Source of the DNA: Patescibacteria group bacterium | Lineage (GTDB): Bacteria; Patescibacteriota; Patescibacteriia; Buchananbacterales; UBA6539 | Assembly: GCA_041662625.1 (NCBI GenBank) | Contig: JBAZSB010000002.1 | Coordinates: 85,497 to 149,496 of the forward strand | Length of the DNA stretch: 64,000 nt | Direction: 5' to 3' | Shown: positions 4,335 through 28,126 of the stretch, piece by piece | Layout of the letters: every line of letters begins with the position of its first letter | Numbering within the stretch: position 1 is the stretch's first letter | Program-made: the position numbers and the translations under genes | The notes under the pieces: generated by a model | The model's input: only the letters and a program-made list of their open reading frames with translations | Told to the model about the DNA's origin: nothing | Database searches by the model: none

Positions 4335-4629
4335 GCCCCTCACCTGAAAAGTTTTTATGTTTTATGTCTATATTCTAAAAAGTAAAAAAGATGGTAGTAT
4401 CTATGTTGGGTATACCAATGATTTAAAAAGAAGATTTTTAGAACATAATAATTTAAAAAGTAAATCAACAAAAAATAAGGCGCCTTTTGAGCTGATCTAT
4501 TATGAGGCCTATAAGGCAATGGCTGACGCCAAATATCGAGAAAATAACCTCAAAAGATTCGCTAAAGCCTATATTCAACTGAAAAGAAGGATTAAAAATA
4601 GCTTAATTTAAACTTTTCAGGTGAGGGGC
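4335..4629 (+). mobile_element. mini-element carrying a GIY-YIG ORF, bounded by perfect 20-bp terminal inverted repeats, inserted at the 5' end of tRNA-Ala
   Basis: GCCCCTCACCTGAAAAGTTT at 4335-4354 and its exact reverse complement AAACTTTTCAGGTGAGGGGC at 4610-4629. 11-bp direct repeat GGGGCCCTTAG at 4325-4335 and 4625-4635; the second copy is the 5' end of tRNA-Ala. Confidence 0.6.
4357..4611 (+). CDS. GIY-YIG nuclease family protein (small, ~84 aa)
   Basis: YVYILKSKKDGSIYVGYTNDLKRRFLEHN is the GIY-(10-11 aa)-YIG motif with the conserved Arg and Glu. Same size class as the second copy at 31038..31292. Confidence 0.85.
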   Translation: MFYVYILKSKKDGSIYVGYTNDLKRRFLEHNNLKSKSTKNKAPFELIYYEAYKAMADAKYRENNLKRFAKAYIQLKRRIKNSLI

Positions 4630-4702
4630 CCTTAGCTCAGTTGGCTAGAGCGCCTCCATGGCATGGAGGAGGCCAAGGGTTCAAATCCCTTAGGGTCCAC
4701 CA
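4626..4702 (+). tRNA. tRNA-Ala (anticodon GGC)
   Basis: Cloverleaf folded by hand: acceptor GGGCCCT/AGGGTCC with the G3:U70 Ala identity pair, D-arm GCTC/GAGC, anticodon stem CCTCC/GGAGG, loop ATGGCAT, T-arm AAGGG-TTCAAAT-CCCTT, encoded CCA. Confidence 0.85.
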
Positions 4703-6113: not shown

Positions 6114-6328
6114 AGCTAGATCTCCTTTTACACTGGTTTGTTTTCCTCCTCGATTTCCGATCAAGTCTGCCTAAAAATATGAATTCTTCATGATAGCAAA
6201 GAACAAATAAATACTAAAAGCATTTTATCATTTTAATTTCATTCCAACAAACCAATTAAACTAACAAAAAAGAGGGAGCAAGCAACTCGCCGCTACCCTC
6301 GAAAACCTTTGATCTAAAGACCCAAGTG

Positions 6329-6700
6329 CTACCCCCTCCATAGGCTCCGCAAACTCCGCAATCCTGGCAAAGACCAGAATATAGACGAGTGCCGACCGTT
6401 GGTCGGCTGGGAGGCAGGTTTGGCCAACTGTGTAGGCCGAGCTATCCGAAGAGCCGCAATAAGGCGGGCGTCACAGACTACCTCCTCAAATGGACAAACC
6501 TTGCGGAGTTGGTAGGGATTTATCGTCCTCAGGTTACCATCAGCTCCGAGCAACTGCACCATGGGATCAGCCATCCCCGGCCAGATTGTGACAAGTTTCA
6601 TCGGCCCGGCCCAAGCATCGCCATTGAACTTCGACTCACGCCGATAAACTATTGCCCCTACTGCCACCGTAGTGCCATCACCCAACTTCACTTGTTCCAT
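6329..6700 (-). CDS. hypothetical protein (GC-rich island)
   Basis: Start at the internal Met preceded by GGAGGG (7-nt spacer). No recognisable motif. Confidence 0.4.
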   Translation of the reverse strand: MEQVKLGDGTTVAVGAIVYRRESKFNGDAWAGPMKLVTIWPGMADPMVQLLGADGNLRTINPYQLRKVCPFEEVVCDARLIAALRIARPTQLAKPASQPTNGRHSSIFWSLPGLRSLRSLWRG

Positions 6701-22204: not shown

Positions 22205-23488
22205 ATGAAAACAGAAATCAATAAACTTCCCCGCGGCCAGGTTGAATTAACCATCGAACTAAGTATTGATGAATATCAGCCTTTTTTAGAACAGGCGGCT
22301 AAAACTATCTCGGAAGTAACGAAAATCCCGGGGTTCCGGCCGGGTAAAGCTGGTTTAGATATTGTTAAACAAAAAGTGGGGGAAGACAAAATCTGGCAAG
22401 AGGCGTTGGAACCAGCGGTGAGAAAAACTTTTTTACAAGCTCTGGATAAACAAAAGTTGCCGACCGTGGGTTCGCCAGAAATTGATGTGATCAAACTGGC
22501 ACCCGGCAACCCCGTGATTTATAAAGCCAAAGTTAATCTGCTCCCAAAAGTGGAGCTAGGTGATTTAACAAAAATTAAAGTTAGCCGCAAGCCGGTGGTA
22601 ATCAAACCTGAGGAAATCAGCCAAACAATAAGTAATATCCAAAAATCGCAAGCCAAAGAAAGCTTAGTCAGCCGCCCAGCCCAAAAAGGCGATAAAGTCG
22701 AAATTGATTTTTCCGTCTCTTTGGACCAAATCCCAATTGACCAGGGCCAAAGCCAAAATTTTCCTTTGGTCATCGGGGAAAAAGCATTTATTCCCGGCTT
22801 TGAAGAACAACTTATTGGCCTTAAAAGCGGCGAGGAAAAAAAATTCAGTTTGGAGTTTCCGAAGAATTACCACCAAAAAAACCTAGCCGGCCGCCTAGCC
22901 GATTTTAAAGTTAAACTCAATGCTGTCTATAATTTGGAATTACCAAAACTGGATGATGATTTCGCCAAAAGCCTCGGCCAGTTTCAAACCGTCAAAGATT
23001 TGGAAGAAGGGGTAAAAAATAAATTAACTAATGATGCTGAATTTCAGGAAAATCAAAGGTTAGAAGAAGAAATTATCGATGCCATCATTAATCAAAGTAA
23101 ATTTGATGATATCCCTGATCTTCTAATTAATACTGAAACAAAAAAAATGCTGGAGGAATTAGAACAAAGCATCAGCCAAAACGGACTTAAATTTGAAGAT
23201 TACTTAAGCCATCTTAAAAAAACCCAAGACGAGTTACTGCTGGATTTTGTGCCCCAAGCAATTAAACGGGTGAAAGGGGCTTTAATCCTCCGCCAGGCAG
23301 GCGAACTAGGTAAAATTCAAGCGACCGAAGAAGATATTGCCGAAGAAATCAAACAAACCAAAGTCTTATATCAAAATAATCCCGAAATTAGTAAACAAAT
23401 TGATAGCCCGGCTTATCACCAATACCTAAAGAATATCCTGACTGGCCGAAAAACTATGGAGTACCTTAAGTCGCTGACAGTAAAATAA
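22205..23488 (+). CDS. tig: trigger factor
   Basis: 427 aa. GFRPGKAG motif, FKBP-type middle domain. Confidence 0.85.
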   Translation: MKTEINKLPRGQVELTIELSIDEYQPFLEQAAKTISEVTKIPGFRPGKAGLDIVKQKVGEDKIWQEALEPAVRKTFLQALDKQKLPTVGSPEIDVIKLAPGNPVIYKAKVNLLPKVELGDLTKIKVSRKPVVIKPEEISQTISNIQKSQAKESLVSRPAQKGDKVEIDFSVSLDQIPIDQGQSQNFPLVIGEKAFIPGFEEQLIGLKSGEEKKFSLEFPKNYHQKNLAGRLADFKVKLNAVYNLELPKLDDDFAKSLGQFQTVKDLEEGVKNKLTNDAEFQENQRLEEEIIDAIINQSKFDDIPDLLINTETKKMLEELEQSISQNGLKFEDYLSHLKKTQDELLLDFVPQAIKRVKGALILRQAGELGKIQATEEDIAEEIKQTKVLYQNNPEISKQIDSPAYHQYLKNILTGRKTMEYLKSLTVK

Positions 23489-23494
23489 AGGGTT

Positions 23495-23995
23495 ATGAAA
23501 ATTGCTATTGTCTCTGACTCTCATGATAATCTGCCCAACATTGAAAAAATGTTAGATTTTGTTAATAAAAATGAGATTAAAATAATAATTCATTGCGGTG
23601 ACTTGGCCGCGCCTTCAATTATCATCGAGGAATTAGGACCTAAGTTTAAAGGTCCGATTCATTTTGTCCATGGTAATGTCGCGGACCGGGAATTGAACGA
23701 CAAATTTGCCAAAGATTTTTCTCAAGTTACTTCACATGGCGAGCTGGGCGAGCTGGAAGTTGACGGCAAAAAAATTGCTTTCTGCCATTACCCAGATCAA
23801 GCCAAAGAATTGGCCCAAAGCGGCAAATATGATTTGGTTTTTTACGGCCACAATCATACGCCCTGGGAAGAAATGATTGGCAAAACAAAAATGTTAAACC
23901 CCGGAACTTTGGCCGGAATGTTTAATAAAGCTACATTCGCCATTTACGACACCAAAACTGACAAGGCAGAATTAATTTTATTAGAGAAGTTATAA
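23495..23995 (+). CDS. metallophosphoesterase (YfcE/MJ0936-like)
   Basis: IAIVSDSHDN...HCGDL...GNHD... motifs. Confidence 0.7.
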   Translation: MKIAIVSDSHDNLPNIEKMLDFVNKNEIKIIIHCGDLAAPSIIIEELGPKFKGPIHFVHGNVADRELNDKFAKDFSQVTSHGELGELEVDGKKIAFCHYPDQAKELAQSGKYDLVFYGHNHTPWEEMIGKTKMLNPGTLAGMFNKATFAIYDTKTDKAELILLEKL

Positions 23996-24032
23996 TAAAC
24001 TCGCTTAAGATTGCTTTTACCAGCTTTAAACT

Positions 24033-24794
24033 ATGAAAAGCTTTATCATTCAACTGGCAAAAAAAACTGGCGACCAAATTCTTCAACACTTCAACAAAGA
24101 CAGAGTCATCAGAATTAAAAAGAAATCCCAGGTTGTCACCCAGGCTGACTTGATTGCCGACCAAATTATCATTAAAAGCCTTCGAAAAAAATTCCCTGGG
24201 TACGGAATTTTGAGCGAAGAGTCGGGCCAGCATAAAACTCAATCAAAATATCTTTGGGTAATTGACCCCCTCGATGGAACAACTAATTACGCCATCGGCA
24301 GCCCTTTGTTTGCCGTCGGCATTTCCTTATTTTTTGAAAACCAACCAATTTTGGCTTGTGCCTATATGCCGGCAATGAAAGAGCTTTATTTTGCCCAAAA
24401 AGATAAAGGCGCTTTTTTAAACAATAAAAAAATAAAAGTTTCTAAAAGCACTCGTTTGGCTGAATCATTTTTGACTTTCTGCCATGGCAGTGCCAGAAAA
24501 GACATTAAACGCGCTCTTGAAGTCTATAACAAAATTAAACTTATTACTGTTGACTCCCGTCAGCTGGGTGCGGCCGCCGTTGAAATGGGCTTTGTTGCTT
24601 GTGGCCGGACCGACTGCATTATTATTCCCGGTGCCCATGCCTGGGATGTCGGCCCGGGCACATTATTAGTCAGGGAAGCCGGGGGCCAAGTCACTGATTT
24701 TGCCGGGGCGGACTGGAACCTGAAATCAAAAGACATGGTAGCTTCCAATGGCAAAATCCATGGCCAGCTGCTCAAACTTCTAAAAAATATCTAA
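24033..24794 (+). CDS. inositol monophosphatase family protein
   Basis: WVIDPLDGTTNY and GAAAVEM motifs. Confidence 0.8.
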   Translation: MKSFIIQLAKKTGDQILQHFNKDRVIRIKKKSQVVTQADLIADQIIIKSLRKKFPGYGILSEESGQHKTQSKYLWVIDPLDGTTNYAIGSPLFAVGISLFFENQPILACAYMPAMKELYFAQKDKGAFLNNKKIKVSKSTRLAESFLTFCHGSARKDIKRALEVYNKIKLITVDSRQLGAAAVEMGFVACGRTDCIIIPGAHAWDVGPGTLLVREAGGQVTDFAGADWNLKSKDMVASNGKIHGQLLKLLKNI

Positions 24795-24804
24795 AGTTCA
24801 AAAT

Positions 24805-25026
24805 ATGGACATCTTGGTTAAAGTAATTCCCCGCTCCAGCCAAACTGAAATTATCGAGGAAAGACCAGACTACCTCAAAATTCGGCTCAAAGCCGCACCA
24901 GTCAAAGGCAAAGCCAATGCCGAGCTGATTAAATTTTTGGCTAAAAAATACCAAGTTAGTCAGTCGCAAGTGGAAATCATCAAAGGCTTGACCGCCAAAG
25001 AAAAATTGGTTAGAATCTATCAGTAA
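24805..25026 (+). CDS. DUF167 / YggU-family protein
   Basis: 73 aa. KIRLKAAPVKGKANAELIKFLAK pattern. Confidence 0.6.
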   Translation: MDILVKVIPRSSQTEIIEERPDYLKIRLKAAPVKGKANAELIKFLAKKYQVSQSQVEIIKGLTAKEKLVRIYQ

Positions 25027-25078
25027 TTAAAGTTAAAAATAAAAACACCGGTCAAACCGGTCAAAAGAAAAACAAAAA

Positions 25079-25103
25079 AATCGCTAAATTTGGCGATTTT
25101 TTG
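25079..25103 (+). terminator. rho-independent terminator
   Basis: AATCGC..GCGATT followed by TTTTTG. Confidence 0.55.
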
Positions 25104-25123
25104 CTATTCTACAACCGAAACTA

Positions 25124-25155
25124 TTGACAAAGTTTTTAAATTATGCTACCATAAT
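25124..25155 (+). promoter_or_regulatory. orphan promoter TTGACA-N17-TACCATAAT
   Basis: No CDS downstream before the terminator at 25461-25496. Confidence 0.5.
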
Positions 25156-25159
25156 CAGT

Positions 25160-25496
25160 TATTTCGACCATTGAAAAATCGGCAATTTCAATCTGCTCAA
25201 AAGTCTGCAGACAGCCCAAACCGGGTCGCAACACCCTCCGCGGTGCTTATTGTGCCAAGCAGAGAGGGGGCTCTTAGTGCCTGTAGAAATTTGGATAGCA
25301 AGTAACATTTGTACCTTTCAATACAAACCTCCTTTCACTTGCTGTCCAATTTCTGCAGGCACGACAAGCACGGAGTTTGTTTCTTGGAAAATTCGGCTTT
25401 GGCTCAATTCCTCCCAGAAATAAACTTCTTGTCTGCAGACTTCTGAGTAGATTAATCAGGAAACCACTCACTATAACTAACGAGTGGTTTTTTGTT
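25160..25496 (+). ncRNA. candidate ~340-nt structured non-coding RNA (unclassified), delimited by a promoter and a terminator
   Basis: No ORF with a start context. A 13-bp long-range helix AAGTCTGCAGACA (25201-25213) pairs with TGTCTGCAGACTT (25430-25442), and there are internal hairpins. Ends in AACCACTC..GAGTGGTT followed by TTTTTG. Confidence 0.4.
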
Positions 25497-25517
25497 AATT
25501 TCAAACCTTAAGCTAAA

Positions 25518-27416
25518 TTATTGACTTGGGGTTTCAACCACTGGCAAATCTTCGGCTGGGGGCGTAGTCTGATCGGTAGGCGTAAGCTCATCAGTACTAG
25601 TCGCCGTCAGCTCTTTACCTACTAGCCAAACTTCTGGCCAGGCGACATAATGACTTTTGAATTCCTGTTCCTTCACCTCACCATTAGGATATGTGACCGT
25701 ATATTTAAAATAAGTATCCGCCCCTTTATGAGCAGTTTCGATCTTTTTCTTTTCACCCGGTTTTAAATCCTCGGTTTCAATGTAGCGTGGCTCACCCGGG
25801 CTAGAAATATTAAATATTGATGGCGGATCAGGGGAAATTTCTATTTGGCGACCGTCTTTGGTGCCATAAAATTCAAAAATCAAAGTGTCACCGGAAATTC
25901 GGGTGGTAAATAAAACGTAATACCCGGTGTCATTGATAAACTTCATATCCGGGGCGGGATTATAAATAGTGGCATCCATGCCTGCGGGTTCGTAATACAC
26001 CACGCGATAAGAATGATTCTGCCGTTTGGTAATCGGCAAGCCGGAATATAAAGCGGCCCGAAAAGTCGTAGTGCCAATCTGGCAAAGACCACCGCCGTAT
26101 TCCGGAATAGTTCGGTCGCCTTTAATAACCAACTCCTGCTTATAGCCATGCTCACCATCAACCGGACCCAAAGCTTTAAGTAAAGAAAACTCTTCATCTG
26201 GTTTAATTAAAATTCCATTTAAACTGGCGGCGCCAACCGCAATATTATGCCGCCGGTTTTTTGGACTGCCGGCAAAATTAGAAGTCCCTCGACCAATTAT
26301 TTCTTTAATCCCTAAATTGGTCACATCAGTATCAGCCGTTTTAATTCTGGCCGGCTGAACAATAACCACTAACTCAATATCTTTGGCTTCGCCAGTAATA
26401 ACTTGGCTGTTAATTTTTTGGTAACTAGCTTCTGAATCCAAAGTTTTGCCATCTTGGCTAGCCTGAAATTCAGTCACCCGGTCGTTTTCTATTTTCATCT
26501 TGCCATCTTGAACTTCAATGTTGACCGCTTCAATAATTGGCTTTAAAAATTCTAAAACTTTATCTTGGTTAAGACCAAGGACCACTTCACCATTAACGAA
26601 CTGAAATTCTAGCCAATTAACCAATTCTTCTTTTTTAATCTCCCACTCCTGAGAATCGGCAATTAATTTTATTGATTCAATGGCTAGAATTTTCTCCAGG
26701 CTATTGACCGCTGAACCAGTCTGGGCTTTTTTGATTTGCGGCTCCTGGAATTTTAATTCGAAACTAATTGGGGAAAAATCCAAATTATTGATGTTTTTTG
26801 CTAATTGTTCAACGGCTTTCTGATATTCAAAAATATAGCCTGATTGCTCGCCAATTACTTCAATTTCTTTGCCTTGGATTTTCAATTGGGCACCAAGGGG
26901 CGGCTTTTCCAAACTAGCAAAGTTGGCTTGTAAAATATTAACTAACTCGGGGTAATTTAAAGAGTAAGAAATTGGGATTTGCTTTTGAAAAACGGCAAGC
27001 TTAAATTGGCTGACCAAATCATTAAATAAATTCCCTGAATGGCCAGCGGCAAAAGCGGAATCCAAAGTTTTTTCCCAGTCAAAAACTAAAATTGGATTGG
27101 CTAAATCCGGATCAGTGGCCGAAACCATAATCGGGTTGATATCCACTTCTTTTCCCGCCGCACTAAATTTCAAACCTTTAGTTTGGACATTGCCCTCAAT
27201 GGCTTTTAGTTGATCTAGTACCTGATCTTTAGTCTGACCGCCAATTTTTAAATAGCCAATTTTCACACCGGGATAGAACCGCTGGGCATAACTAGTTTCG
27301 ACCCAAAAAATTAGGCCGGCACCAACTAAAACTAAAATAAAAAAAGCGGCGGCCACAATTAACCACCCCTTCTTACTTTTAACTTTACCCGATTTATCAA
27401 AAGGTTTATTTGTCAT
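25518..27416 (-). CDS. VanW-family protein with N-terminal TM anchor
   Basis: GGGLCQIGTTTFRAALYSGLPI is the VanW-domain signature. 632 aa. Confidence 0.7.
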   Translation of the reverse strand: MTNKPFDKSGKVKSKKGWLIVAAAFFILVLVGAGLIFWVETSYAQRFYPGVKIGYLKIGGQTKDQVLDQLKAIEGNVQTKGLKFSAAGKEVDINPIMVSATDPDLANPILVFDWEKTLDSAFAAGHSGNLFNDLVSQFKLAVFQKQIPISYSLNYPELVNILQANFASLEKPPLGAQLKIQGKEIEVIGEQSGYIFEYQKAVEQLAKNINNLDFSPISFELKFQEPQIKKAQTGSAVNSLEKILAIESIKLIADSQEWEIKKEELVNWLEFQFVNGEVVLGLNQDKVLEFLKPIIEAVNIEVQDGKMKIENDRVTEFQASQDGKTLDSEASYQKINSQVITGEAKDIELVVIVQPARIKTADTDVTNLGIKEIIGRGTSNFAGSPKNRRHNIAVGAASLNGILIKPDEEFSLLKALGPVDGEHGYKQELVIKGDRTIPEYGGGLCQIGTTTFRAALYSGLPITKRQNHSYRVVYYEPAGMDATIYNPAPDMKFINDTGYYVLFTTRISGDTLIFEFYGTKDGRQIEISPDPPSIFNISSPGEPRYIETEDLKPGEKKKIETAHKGADTYFKYTVTYPNGEVKEQEFKSHYVAWPEVWLVGKELTATSTDELTPTDQTTPPAEDLPVVETPSQ

Positions 27417-27672
27417 TTTCGTTATTGGTTTTTAAAATTTTGTTCAAAATCGTTTTGGCTGTTTTTTCCCGGTCTTCCTGGTCAGTTTTACTGGTGCTTA
27501 AAATAATTCGGACTTTTTGGCCTTTATCAGAATCTTCCGGCAAATTTTTGATTGGCCAAAGCAACTTTTGGCCATCCTCAACTATAATTACGGCCATTTT
27601 ATCCTCAAACCGATCAATCGTCCCTTCAAAAAAATAGCGGTCTTTTGTTTGATCTAAATCATCACTGGTCAT
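27406..27672 (-). CDS. small hypothetical protein (DUF3006-like)
   Basis: 88 aa, acidic. The family call is a weak guess. Confidence 0.35.
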   Translation of the reverse strand: MTSDDLDQTKDRYFFEGTIDRFEDKMAVIIVEDGQKLLWPIKNLPEDSDKGQKVRIILSTSKTDQEDREKTAKTILNKILKTNNENDK

Positions 27673-27673
27673 C

Positions 27674-28126
27674 TTACTCCTCTTTTATTTTGATCGGAAT
27701 ATTTCTTTTCCTTTCAAGCTTAGGTAGGGTAATAGTTAGCACCCCATTTTTTAAAGTTGCTGAAATCTTATCACTTTTTACTTCGGTTGGCAAGATGATC
27801 GAACGGGAAAAGTTGCCCCAGTAACATTCCTGGAAAAAATAGTCTTTTCCATCCACGGCCTGCTCGTGACTCCGACTGCCGCGGATAGTCAGCATGTCGT
27901 TATTAACCGAGATATCCAAATCCTGCGGCCGCACGCCGGCAATGGTTGATTTGATATAAATGTTTTTGTCATCCTGATAAACATCCAAAAGCAGCTGACC
28001 TTCATTTTCTTCATCTAACCAATTTCGGCCAAGTAATGAATCATCTTCATGATAAAAAGCAACTTTCCCCCCGGCCGAAGACTCGTTTTTAGCCAATAAT
28101 TTTTGTTTCTTTTTTAATAACCCCAT
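27674..28126 (-). CDS. Hsp20/alpha-crystallin family small heat-shock protein
   Basis: Alpha-crystallin domain (...DISVNNDMLTIRGSR...GVLTITLPK). Confidence 0.85.
   Translation of the reverse strand: MGLLKKKQKLLAKNESSAGGKVAFYHEDDSLLGRNWLDEENEGQLLLDVYQDDKNIYIKSTIAGVRPQDLDISVNNDMLTIRGSRSHEQAVDGKDYFFQECYWGNFSRSIILPTEVKSDKISATLKNGVLTITLPKLERKRNIPIKIKEE

Follow-up and report, generated by a model that had tools for sequence, protein, structure and literature searches.

The window, by which we mean the whole 64,000-nucleotide stretch of Patescibacteria DNA analysed here, carries on its + strand, between a DUF167 gene and a convergent VanW gene, a unit running from a promoter to a terminator (25124–25496). 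We are highly confident that this stretch is a real, + strand, structured member of an RNA family. Homologues of the family were found at more than 110 metagenomic and genomic loci; judged from sequence and model matches, it is widespread in Patescibacteria (candidate phyla radiation, CPR), occurs also in a few phages and is absent from Rfam 15. No description of the RNA was found in the literature on Patescibacteria/CPR non-coding RNA, riboswitches and VanW, whose coverage was incomplete, so that an earlier description is possible; on this partial coverage, the RNA is a new family of stand-alone structured bacterial non-coding RNA. An earlier note, made from the letters of the window, had proposed a promoter-to-terminator unit for a structured non-coding RNA of ~340 nt, and promoter, terminator and fold were all found. 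Its fallback suggestion, a novel small RNA (sRNA), fits.

The unit opens with a near-consensus extended −10 promoter (25124–25152), and the same promoter is present at the same position in twelve lineage relatives. The −35 hexamer TTGACA (25124–25129, + strand) is kept in 12 of 12 of these relatives. After a spacer of 17 nt follows the extended −10 element TGcTACCAT (25144–25152, +), with the TG at 25144–25145 and TACCAT at 25147–25152; the promoter consensus scan scores the window promoter 10 of 12, with the TG. From this promoter, transcription is predicted to start at about 25158–25160. The unit closes with an intrinsic terminator hairpin and U-run (25457–25496, +), in which AAACCACUC (25461–25469) pairs with GAGUGGUUU (25482–25490) ahead of a U-tract ending at 25493. 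The consensus scan missed this terminator because its loop is 12 nt long. At the same position in the relatives stands either a terminator that is not homologous to this one or a U-run that immediately follows the outer stem of the RNA. The earlier note had seen no open reading frame (ORF) with a ribosome-binding site inside the unit; none is conserved in the 12 relatives, where frame, start codon and length vary, and the ORFs are unlike proteins. A small protein gene is rejected on these grounds.

The fold of the + strand is far more stable than that of shuffled sequences. The minimum free energy of 25160–25496 is −143.6 kcal/mol, compared with −79.9 ± 5.6 kcal/mol after shuffling (z = −11.3), and the − strand of the unit folds less well (z = −8.3). 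The framework is a 24-nt inverted repeat, 92% complementary, which pairs 25190–25213 with 25430–25453 across 216 nt. It contains the exact 13-nt long-range pairing that the earlier note had picked out, which proves real and central to the stem. The 12-mer AAGTCTGCAGAC occurs only at the two repeat sites in the 64-kb window, where 0.12 occurrences would be expected. The minimum-energy fold of the window RNA is a four-way junction (−127.5 kcal/mol). Structure prediction and covariation in relatives, the two checks that the earlier note had proposed for the fold, both support it. The lineage alignment for the latter comprises 12 sequences of ~300 nt (the window, eight VanW-anchored relatives, L001, L019 and L107). 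Pairing in the nested fold reaches 89.8% in this alignment, and 27 pairs show double changes, as against 14.8 in shuffled alignments (reached by 0 of 500), and the outer stem is 93.5% paired, with compensatory changes at 11 of its 23 pairs.

The closest homologue of the VanW gene of the window among species-representative genomes is from Candidatus Buchananbacteria, and 6 of the 11 VanW-homologue loci have sequence homologous to the flagged region just past the VanW stop codon. Distant relatives retain the 3′ third only, a hairpin with a variable closing stem that contains GGCACGACAAGCAYGGRG...CUUCUUG. Scanning metagenomes with this pattern matched at least 120 stretches; among the 120 matches listed, about 95 have complementary flanks and the remainder are GC-rich chance matches. 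A covariance model, R1, was built from 81 distinct sequences and finds 118 copies in the retrieved loci. It aligns to the window over its full length with 81.9 bits, the window having been in the seed. R1 also finds the RNA in 12 of 12 loci reached through VanW protein look-ups, in which the VanW labels include Uhrbacteria, 'Parcubacteria group' and 'Patescibacteria group'. In five loci, among them those labelled Komeilibacteria and Peregrinibacteria, no copy was found near VanW even with the filters off. No second copy of the unit lies within the 64-kb window.

All homologues share a rod-like core of ~97 nt that consists of the helix P1, a bulge and the hairpin P2-P3-P4. P1 leads into a 10-nt invariant 5′ bulge, CGACAAGCAY, which faces a single U, and then into P2, which begins with G-C followed by G.U. 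P3 is AGG/CCU, and P4 (GGY-loop-RCU) is capped by a variable UNCG-type tetraloop; at the P4 base, an invariant G.U usually lies beside an A.C. In the 81-sequence alignment, 88.6% of the cells are standard pairs, compared with 67.3% in shuffled alignments (0 of 500 reach the observed value) and 38–53% for slid partners. Cells changed on both sides number 564, against 192 in the shuffles, and two G.U pairs never vary. G.U pairs outnumber A.C pairs by 393 to 89 in the family alignment and by 125 to 45 in the lineage alignment; this excess of ~4 to 1 indicates that the + strand is the functional RNA strand. The invariant 12-mer (consensus CACGACAAGCAY) is intact in 18 copies that were reached via VanW and not by the pattern, although their VanW proteins are only 35–87% identical to that of the window, and in five tandem second copies that differ elsewhere in the scan pattern.

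In the window, the invariant 12-mer reads CACGACAAGCAC (25360–25371, +, from the family alignment); followed by GG, it extends to 25373, and the matching YCUUG lies opposite (25427–25431). GACAAGCAC (25363–25371) is unpaired in all models and in both folds. The P2-P3-P4 hairpin of the core (25372–25428, +; 95.7% paired in the lineage) has the invariant G.U at its second P2 pair (25373.25427) and GG/CU at the P4 base. A single unpaired U (25429, +) precedes the 3′ arm of the outer stem (segment D, 25430–25453), which is defined by the repeat and the alignments. The functional centre of the window RNA is thereby placed, on sequence grounds, in its 3′ third (25360–25429).

The lineage of the window differs from the rest of the family by three extra hairpins inserted between the 5′ strand of P1 and the bulge. 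Family-type P1 complementarity is present in the window (25352–25361 with 25430–25439), yet the 3′ arm probably pairs with the distal segment A (25190–25213, +), the 5′ arm of the outer closing stem, which is identified by the inverted repeat and by covariation. In the models, segment A is the functional equivalent of the 5′ strand of the family P1, and forcing the family-type P1 costs 28 kcal/mol relative to the nested fold. Between the arms lie the small hairpin h0 (GCCC/GGGU, 25214–25226, +; 87.5% paired in the lineage, no double changes), hairpin 1 (25234–25270, +; 78% paired, four pairs double-changed), with a CCUCC...GGAGG stem and a conserved GUGCU-loop-GUGCC top, and hairpin 2 (segments B:C, 25277–25362, +). 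The latter is a stem of ~25 bp, supported by inverted repeats, with two helices 96% and 90% paired; it is rich in U.G/G.U pairs, which are possible on the + strand alone, and at its apex a mini-hairpin pairs 25308–25313 with 25322–25327. At the top of hairpin 2, fold and conservation predict a single-stranded AAACCUCCUUUCA (25325–25337, +), an anti-Shine-Dalgarno look-alike. ACCUCCUUU is conserved in practically all of the 12 lineage sequences (L260 has it, shifted by one base in the alignment) and is identical to the 16S 3′ tail; the CPR 16S from L093 ends GAUCACCUCCUUU. The motif is confined to the lineage of the window, with 24 CCUCC against 19 GGAGG across the family. The 5′ leader (25158–25189, +) is little conserved, and its predicted small hairpin is unsupported in the lineage alignment (59% of cells paired).

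Some features of related loci bear on the same segments. The tip of hairpin 2 takes large insertions just after the anti-Shine-Dalgarno-like loop, namely a self-folding hairpin of ~110 nt in L002 (~6128–6235) and a 24-nt insertion in L107 (columns 212–235 of the lineage alignment). In L255 (4328–5412, − strand reading), the 3′ arm of the outer stem and the tail (GGGGTCTGCAGACTTTAAAGCAGATTCCACAACTAAA...) are degenerately repeated twice more downstream of the RNA, in a spacer that is unusually long (1.1 kb). Other lineages have different 5′ add-ons, and some duplicate the 5′ strand of P1. In L016, L103 and L067, a look-alike, CUGUAUCCACGAC-CC(hairpin)GG-CWGGACGAGG, is located 100–200 nt upstream of the core. 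It repeats the 5′ strand of P1 and the first bases of the invariant motif, which provides an alternative partner for the 3′ strand of P1, and it mirrors the duplication of segments A and C in the window (25201–25213 and 25350–25362).

Promoters of the form TTGACA-N16-18-TAnnnT, usually with the TG, are found upstream of 103 of the 118 copies, in the minimal forms 23–50 nt before the start of the model. A promoter scoring at least 11.5 lies within 120 nt upstream of 57 of 113 copies, whereas 8 of 565 windows drawn at random from these loci have one, an enrichment of ~35-fold. A U-run follows the core after 4–18 nt in about half of the copies, so the closing stem doubles as the terminator; in many other copies a U-run, or else a distinct GC-rich terminator hairpin, comes 40–80 nt downstream. 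From these positions the minimal RNAs would be ~125–160 nt long and the window form ~340 nt. Taken together, these signals make it very probable that the RNA is an independent transcript.

The upstream neighbour in the window is the DUF167 gene (24805–25026, +, from the ORF annotation), and downstream lies the VanW/PG_binding_4 gene (25518–27416, −), which is convergent, outside the RNA and the usual neighbour of the family. The view of the earlier note that the unit sits between convergent genes and is not a leader therefore holds. Across the family, a VanW homologue adjoins 80 of the 118 copies; 63 of these genes are convergent, with gaps down to 9 nt, and 16 lie upstream on the same strand. 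The clpP gene lies upstream in the same orientation in 13 cases and is the convergent downstream gene in 10, and hsp20 also recurs. The RNA occupies the gap between convergent VanW and clpP, or lies near tig, in either orientation, and in a separate group it is located between RNase J and a convergent 245-aa gene. It is not a 5′ leader, and no one gene is its constant antisense target. The idea that it regularly controls VanW as an antisense RNA loses weight because both orientations occur between VanW and clpP. A riboswitch or 5′ leader was rejected, the downstream gene being convergent in the window and in most loci; the exceptions are small ORFs in L256 (~4379–4700, −) and L001 (~2590–2760, −). 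These ORFs (105 and 55 aa as translated) are mutually dissimilar, have strong GGAGG ribosome-binding sites and start ~30 nt after the U-run of the RNA in the same direction; each is an insertion, specific to its lineage, that separates the RNA from VanW.

The VanW gene of the window is the end of an hsp20-DUF3006-VanW array, and the trigger factor gene lies further upstream. This region (22205–28126), like many of the other loci, has an abundance of genes for proteostasis and the envelope (those for trigger factor and, in relatives, clpP, as well as the hsp20-DUF3006-VanW array), which may reflect function or mere inherited gene order. In L092 the RNA (1642–1739, −) follows the 23S-5S rRNA genes at a distance of ~460 nt and shares their strand (5S at 2203–2321, 23S 3′ end at 2390–2772), with VanW still convergent. 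Two hairpins after the DUF167 gene of the window (25047–25061 and 25075–25102) score as − strand terminators and look bidirectional, being flanked by A-runs and T-runs; they would also halt an antisense transcript crossing the RNA gene from the VanW side. The terminator stem of the RNA, ACCACTC-N12-GAGTGGT (25461–25490), loosely resembles the half-site pattern GCACTC-N9-GAGTGC of CIRCE (controlling inverted repeat of chaperone expression). This likeness is probably a coincidence, because spacing and sequence differ and the relatives do not keep the stem sequence.

Copies that do not adjoin VanW occur on three types of phage-like contig, where their neighbours include recombinase, ParB-methylase, PAPS-reductase and YopX genes. 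The copy in L109 (6845–6951, +; R1 score 39 bits) has an exact CACGACAAGCAUGG and a covarying P1, and is located inside an array with ERF recombinase, ParB_N, PAPS-reductase/DUF3440, YqaJ, PD-(D/E)XK and YopX genes; no promoter of its own was found. The viral contigs L244 (4205–4311) and L281 (1–103) are of the same phage type. In IMG/VR viral contigs, four pattern matches are real family members and the others are not. L273 from this source (2508–2603, +) carries Rad52 and ParB-N6 methylase genes, with a Cpn60/GroEL-like gene ~460 nt downstream of the RNA, and L216 (2465–2564, −) has a 65% GC version with the promoter TTGACG-N17-TAGGGT. The GenBank phage collection gave no match. Two cores in tandem, 130–380 nt apart, are found in eight loci (L034, L023, L122, L130, L088, L128, L097 and L025), for example at 6570–6666 and 6954–7050 in L034 and at 2277–2378 and 2499–2595 in L023. 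The tandem cores are apparently on one transcript, because a single promoter was found, upstream of the first core. In four tandem loci the first copy reads ...GCAUAGGA.../...UUUCUUUG, which is off the scan pattern, and the invariant 12-mer is intact.

The best overall explanation, to which we give an even chance, is that the unit is a stand-alone gene for a ~340-nt non-coding RNA that is abundant, acts in trans and docks a conserved partner with its invariant bulge. For trans action through the bulge taken by itself our estimate is equally balanced, and a protein as the partner of the bulge is proposed tentatively, at somewhat less than an even chance. A strong σ70-type promoter would drive a + strand RNA that ends at the intrinsic terminator. 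The invariant bulge and the G.U/A.C site of P4, held at a fixed distance of about two helical turns, would together offer the surface at which a single, highly conserved partner in the cell docks; a protein is the most plausible candidate, which would make the RNA part of a ribonucleoprotein (RNP) or a titrating RNA. The lineage-specific add-on domains may provide extra functions such as pairing with Shine-Dalgarno sequences. The phage-like contig copies away from VanW favour trans action, and the two cores per transcript in eight loci favour the behaviour of a binding module.

In this respect the RNA is reminiscent of the titrating sRNAs CsrB and RsmZ, which carry one or several binding modules per transcript, although the present module is a structured domain of ~97 nt and not a short GGA hairpin loop. 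Small bacterial signal recognition particle (SRP) RNA (4.5S) is a hairpin of ~110–130 nt in which conserved internal loops dock a protein and the helices covary; here loop sequences and sizes differ, and P4 is capped by the variable UNCG-type loop. The raiA motif, OLE, ROOL and GOLLD resemble the RNA in combining covariation with invariant nucleotides, in being lineage-restricted and sometimes phage-borne, and in having had no assigned function at discovery. They show no homology to it (cmscan negative), the present RNA being patescibacterial and VanW-syntenic, and OLE, ROOL and GOLLD are much larger. By analogy, the RNA is most like the small protein-binding rods (4.5S/SRP) in form and like the orphan structured RNAs (raiA, OLE, ROOL) in status.

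The alternative that survives best, although we consider it unlikely, is a base-pairing regulatory sRNA, in which the bulge would be the seed for an ultra-conserved RNA (rRNA, tRNA or an mRNA start with AUG) and the anti-Shine-Dalgarno-like loop would block ribosome-binding sites in the lineage of the window. The bulge is single-stranded in all models and contains CAU, and the lineage-wide identity of ACCUCCUUU with the 16S 3′ tail points the same way, but CCUCC is not enriched family-wide. The best match to CPR 16S (L093 contig) is the 5′ strand of helix 34, with 11 of 14 Watson-Crick pairs, a value reached by 34 of 1000 shuffles. By duplex energy this match is ordinary (58 of 500 shuffles equal it, p ~0.12), and since several targets were tried post hoc, the p ~0.03 for helix 34 fails correction. 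Nor does the sense strand resemble 16S or 23S to a significant degree, and rRNA pairing or mimicry by the bulge was rejected as unproven. No recurring site complementary to the bulge was found in 880 kb of flanking sequence and none in the window, and a 10-nt bulge within a rod offers poor seed geometry.

A ligand-sensing element resembling an orphan riboswitch is less likely still. In such an element, ligand bound at the bulge would stabilise P1 together with the outer stem in its second role as terminator, and so gate antisense read-through into VanW or clpP. The conservation is aptamer-like, with invariant junction nucleotides and covarying helices, and tandem cores occur. Many copies have the U-run directly after the closing helix, the downstream gene is convergent in most contexts, and the duplicated upstream P1 strand offers an alternative pairing in several lineages. 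The Listeria B12-AspocR and the S-box antisense RNA of ubiG in Clostridium are precedents: in both, a structured element points towards the 3′ end of a gene, and read-through of its terminator would give antisense RNA. Here, by contrast, the putative target varies with the orientation (VanW, clpP or the 245-aa gene), there is no evident ligand, and many copies, that of the window included, end in a terminator of their own that is constitutive, and no anti-terminator is visible in them. The phage copies lie within co-directional gene arrays, and near-consensus promoters suggest a high constitutive output.

A known housekeeping RNA in lineage-divergent form (6S, SRP, RNase P or transfer-messenger RNA (tmRNA)) would agree with the strong promoter, the wide spread within the phylum and the rod-like shape, and the Rfam 6S model is known to miss divergent 6S RNAs; we nevertheless regard it as very improbable. 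The Rfam cmscan that the earlier note had proposed places the unit in no known family. At gathering thresholds, Rfam 15 finds four tRNAs in the whole window and nothing else; at E ≤ 10, the flagged region gives only chance matches to terminator-like sRNAs. The minimal homologue and five other carrier loci, searched at permissive or gathering thresholds, likewise yielded nothing beyond tRNAs, rRNAs and chance matches, and canonical 16S, 23S and 5S rRNAs were detected normally on carrier contigs. The earlier note had failed to match tmRNA, RNase P and SRP motifs by eye, and the model searches agree. ARAGORN finds no tmRNA in 24900–25700, the P4 and CR-I to CR-V motifs of RNase P RNA are absent on reading the sequence, and SRP RNA is rejected for want of a GNRA-capped domain IV. 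The identity that the earlier note preferred, 6S RNA, is not supported. Like 6S RNA (ssrS, RF00013), the RNA is stand-alone, probably abundant, driven by a strong promoter, rod-like and largely double-stranded with one conserved unpaired region. Unlike 6S RNA, which needs a large two-sided bubble mimicking an open promoter, it has 10 nt facing one nucleotide; its minimal members (~125–160 nt) are shorter than a typical 6S RNA, and the window form is a multi-branch (four-way) junction.

An element acting at the level of the DNA or as a terminator, that is, a long hairpin that terminates transcription in both directions or insulates convergent genes from each other, or else a miniature inverted-repeat mobile element, is just as improbable: both strands fold well, and many minimal members are one long hairpin with a 5′ A-run and a 3′ U-run abutting the VanW stop codon (gaps 9–33 nt), but the G.U excess marks one functional strand, neither a terminator nor a mobile element of this kind has any need of its own consensus promoter or of an invariant 12-mer, and the single copy in the window, syntenic across loci rather than dispersed, also led us to reject a repetitive palindrome.

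Several points weigh against a trans-acting RNA that docks a partner through its bulge. Start site, end and abundance of the RNA are read from sequence signals. The tight linkage to the 3′ end of VanW could mean a cis or local role. Most members were gathered by a pattern that fixes the bulge sequence and were then filtered for P1 complementarity; the support for P1 and for the invariance of the bulge therefore rests on smaller unbiased sets, P2-P4 having been selected for by neither pattern nor filter. The invariant bulge cannot covary with any partner. In the lineage of the window, the family-type P1 competes in the models with the nested fold, and a conformational switch may be possible.

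A large part of bacterial diversity belongs to the Patescibacteria; their genomes are tiny, and to our knowledge almost no regulatory RNAs have been characterised in them. That the family represents a new class of abundant RNA across much of the phylum, with a biochemical role of its own, is possible rather than probable. The 12-nt stretch that stays unchanged despite the drift of VanW to ~30% identity, the near-perfect promoters and the phage copies suggest a role indispensable to the hosts. If so, it could be the RNA component of an RNP yet to be described, a new catalytic or ligand-sensing RNA linked to genes for the envelope or proteostasis (hsp20-VanW, clpP, tig) or, in these reduced genomes, a substitute for a function such as that of 6S RNA, and it would be valuable enough for phages to carry copies. 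To find an RNA motif without an assigned function is not in itself unusual, but this family is widespread, sharply defined and tractable by experiment. With a covariance model, boundaries and an obvious site for mutation in hand, work on partner, ligand and structure is feasible, and the family would close a gap in the annotation of metagenome-assembled genomes by the thousand.

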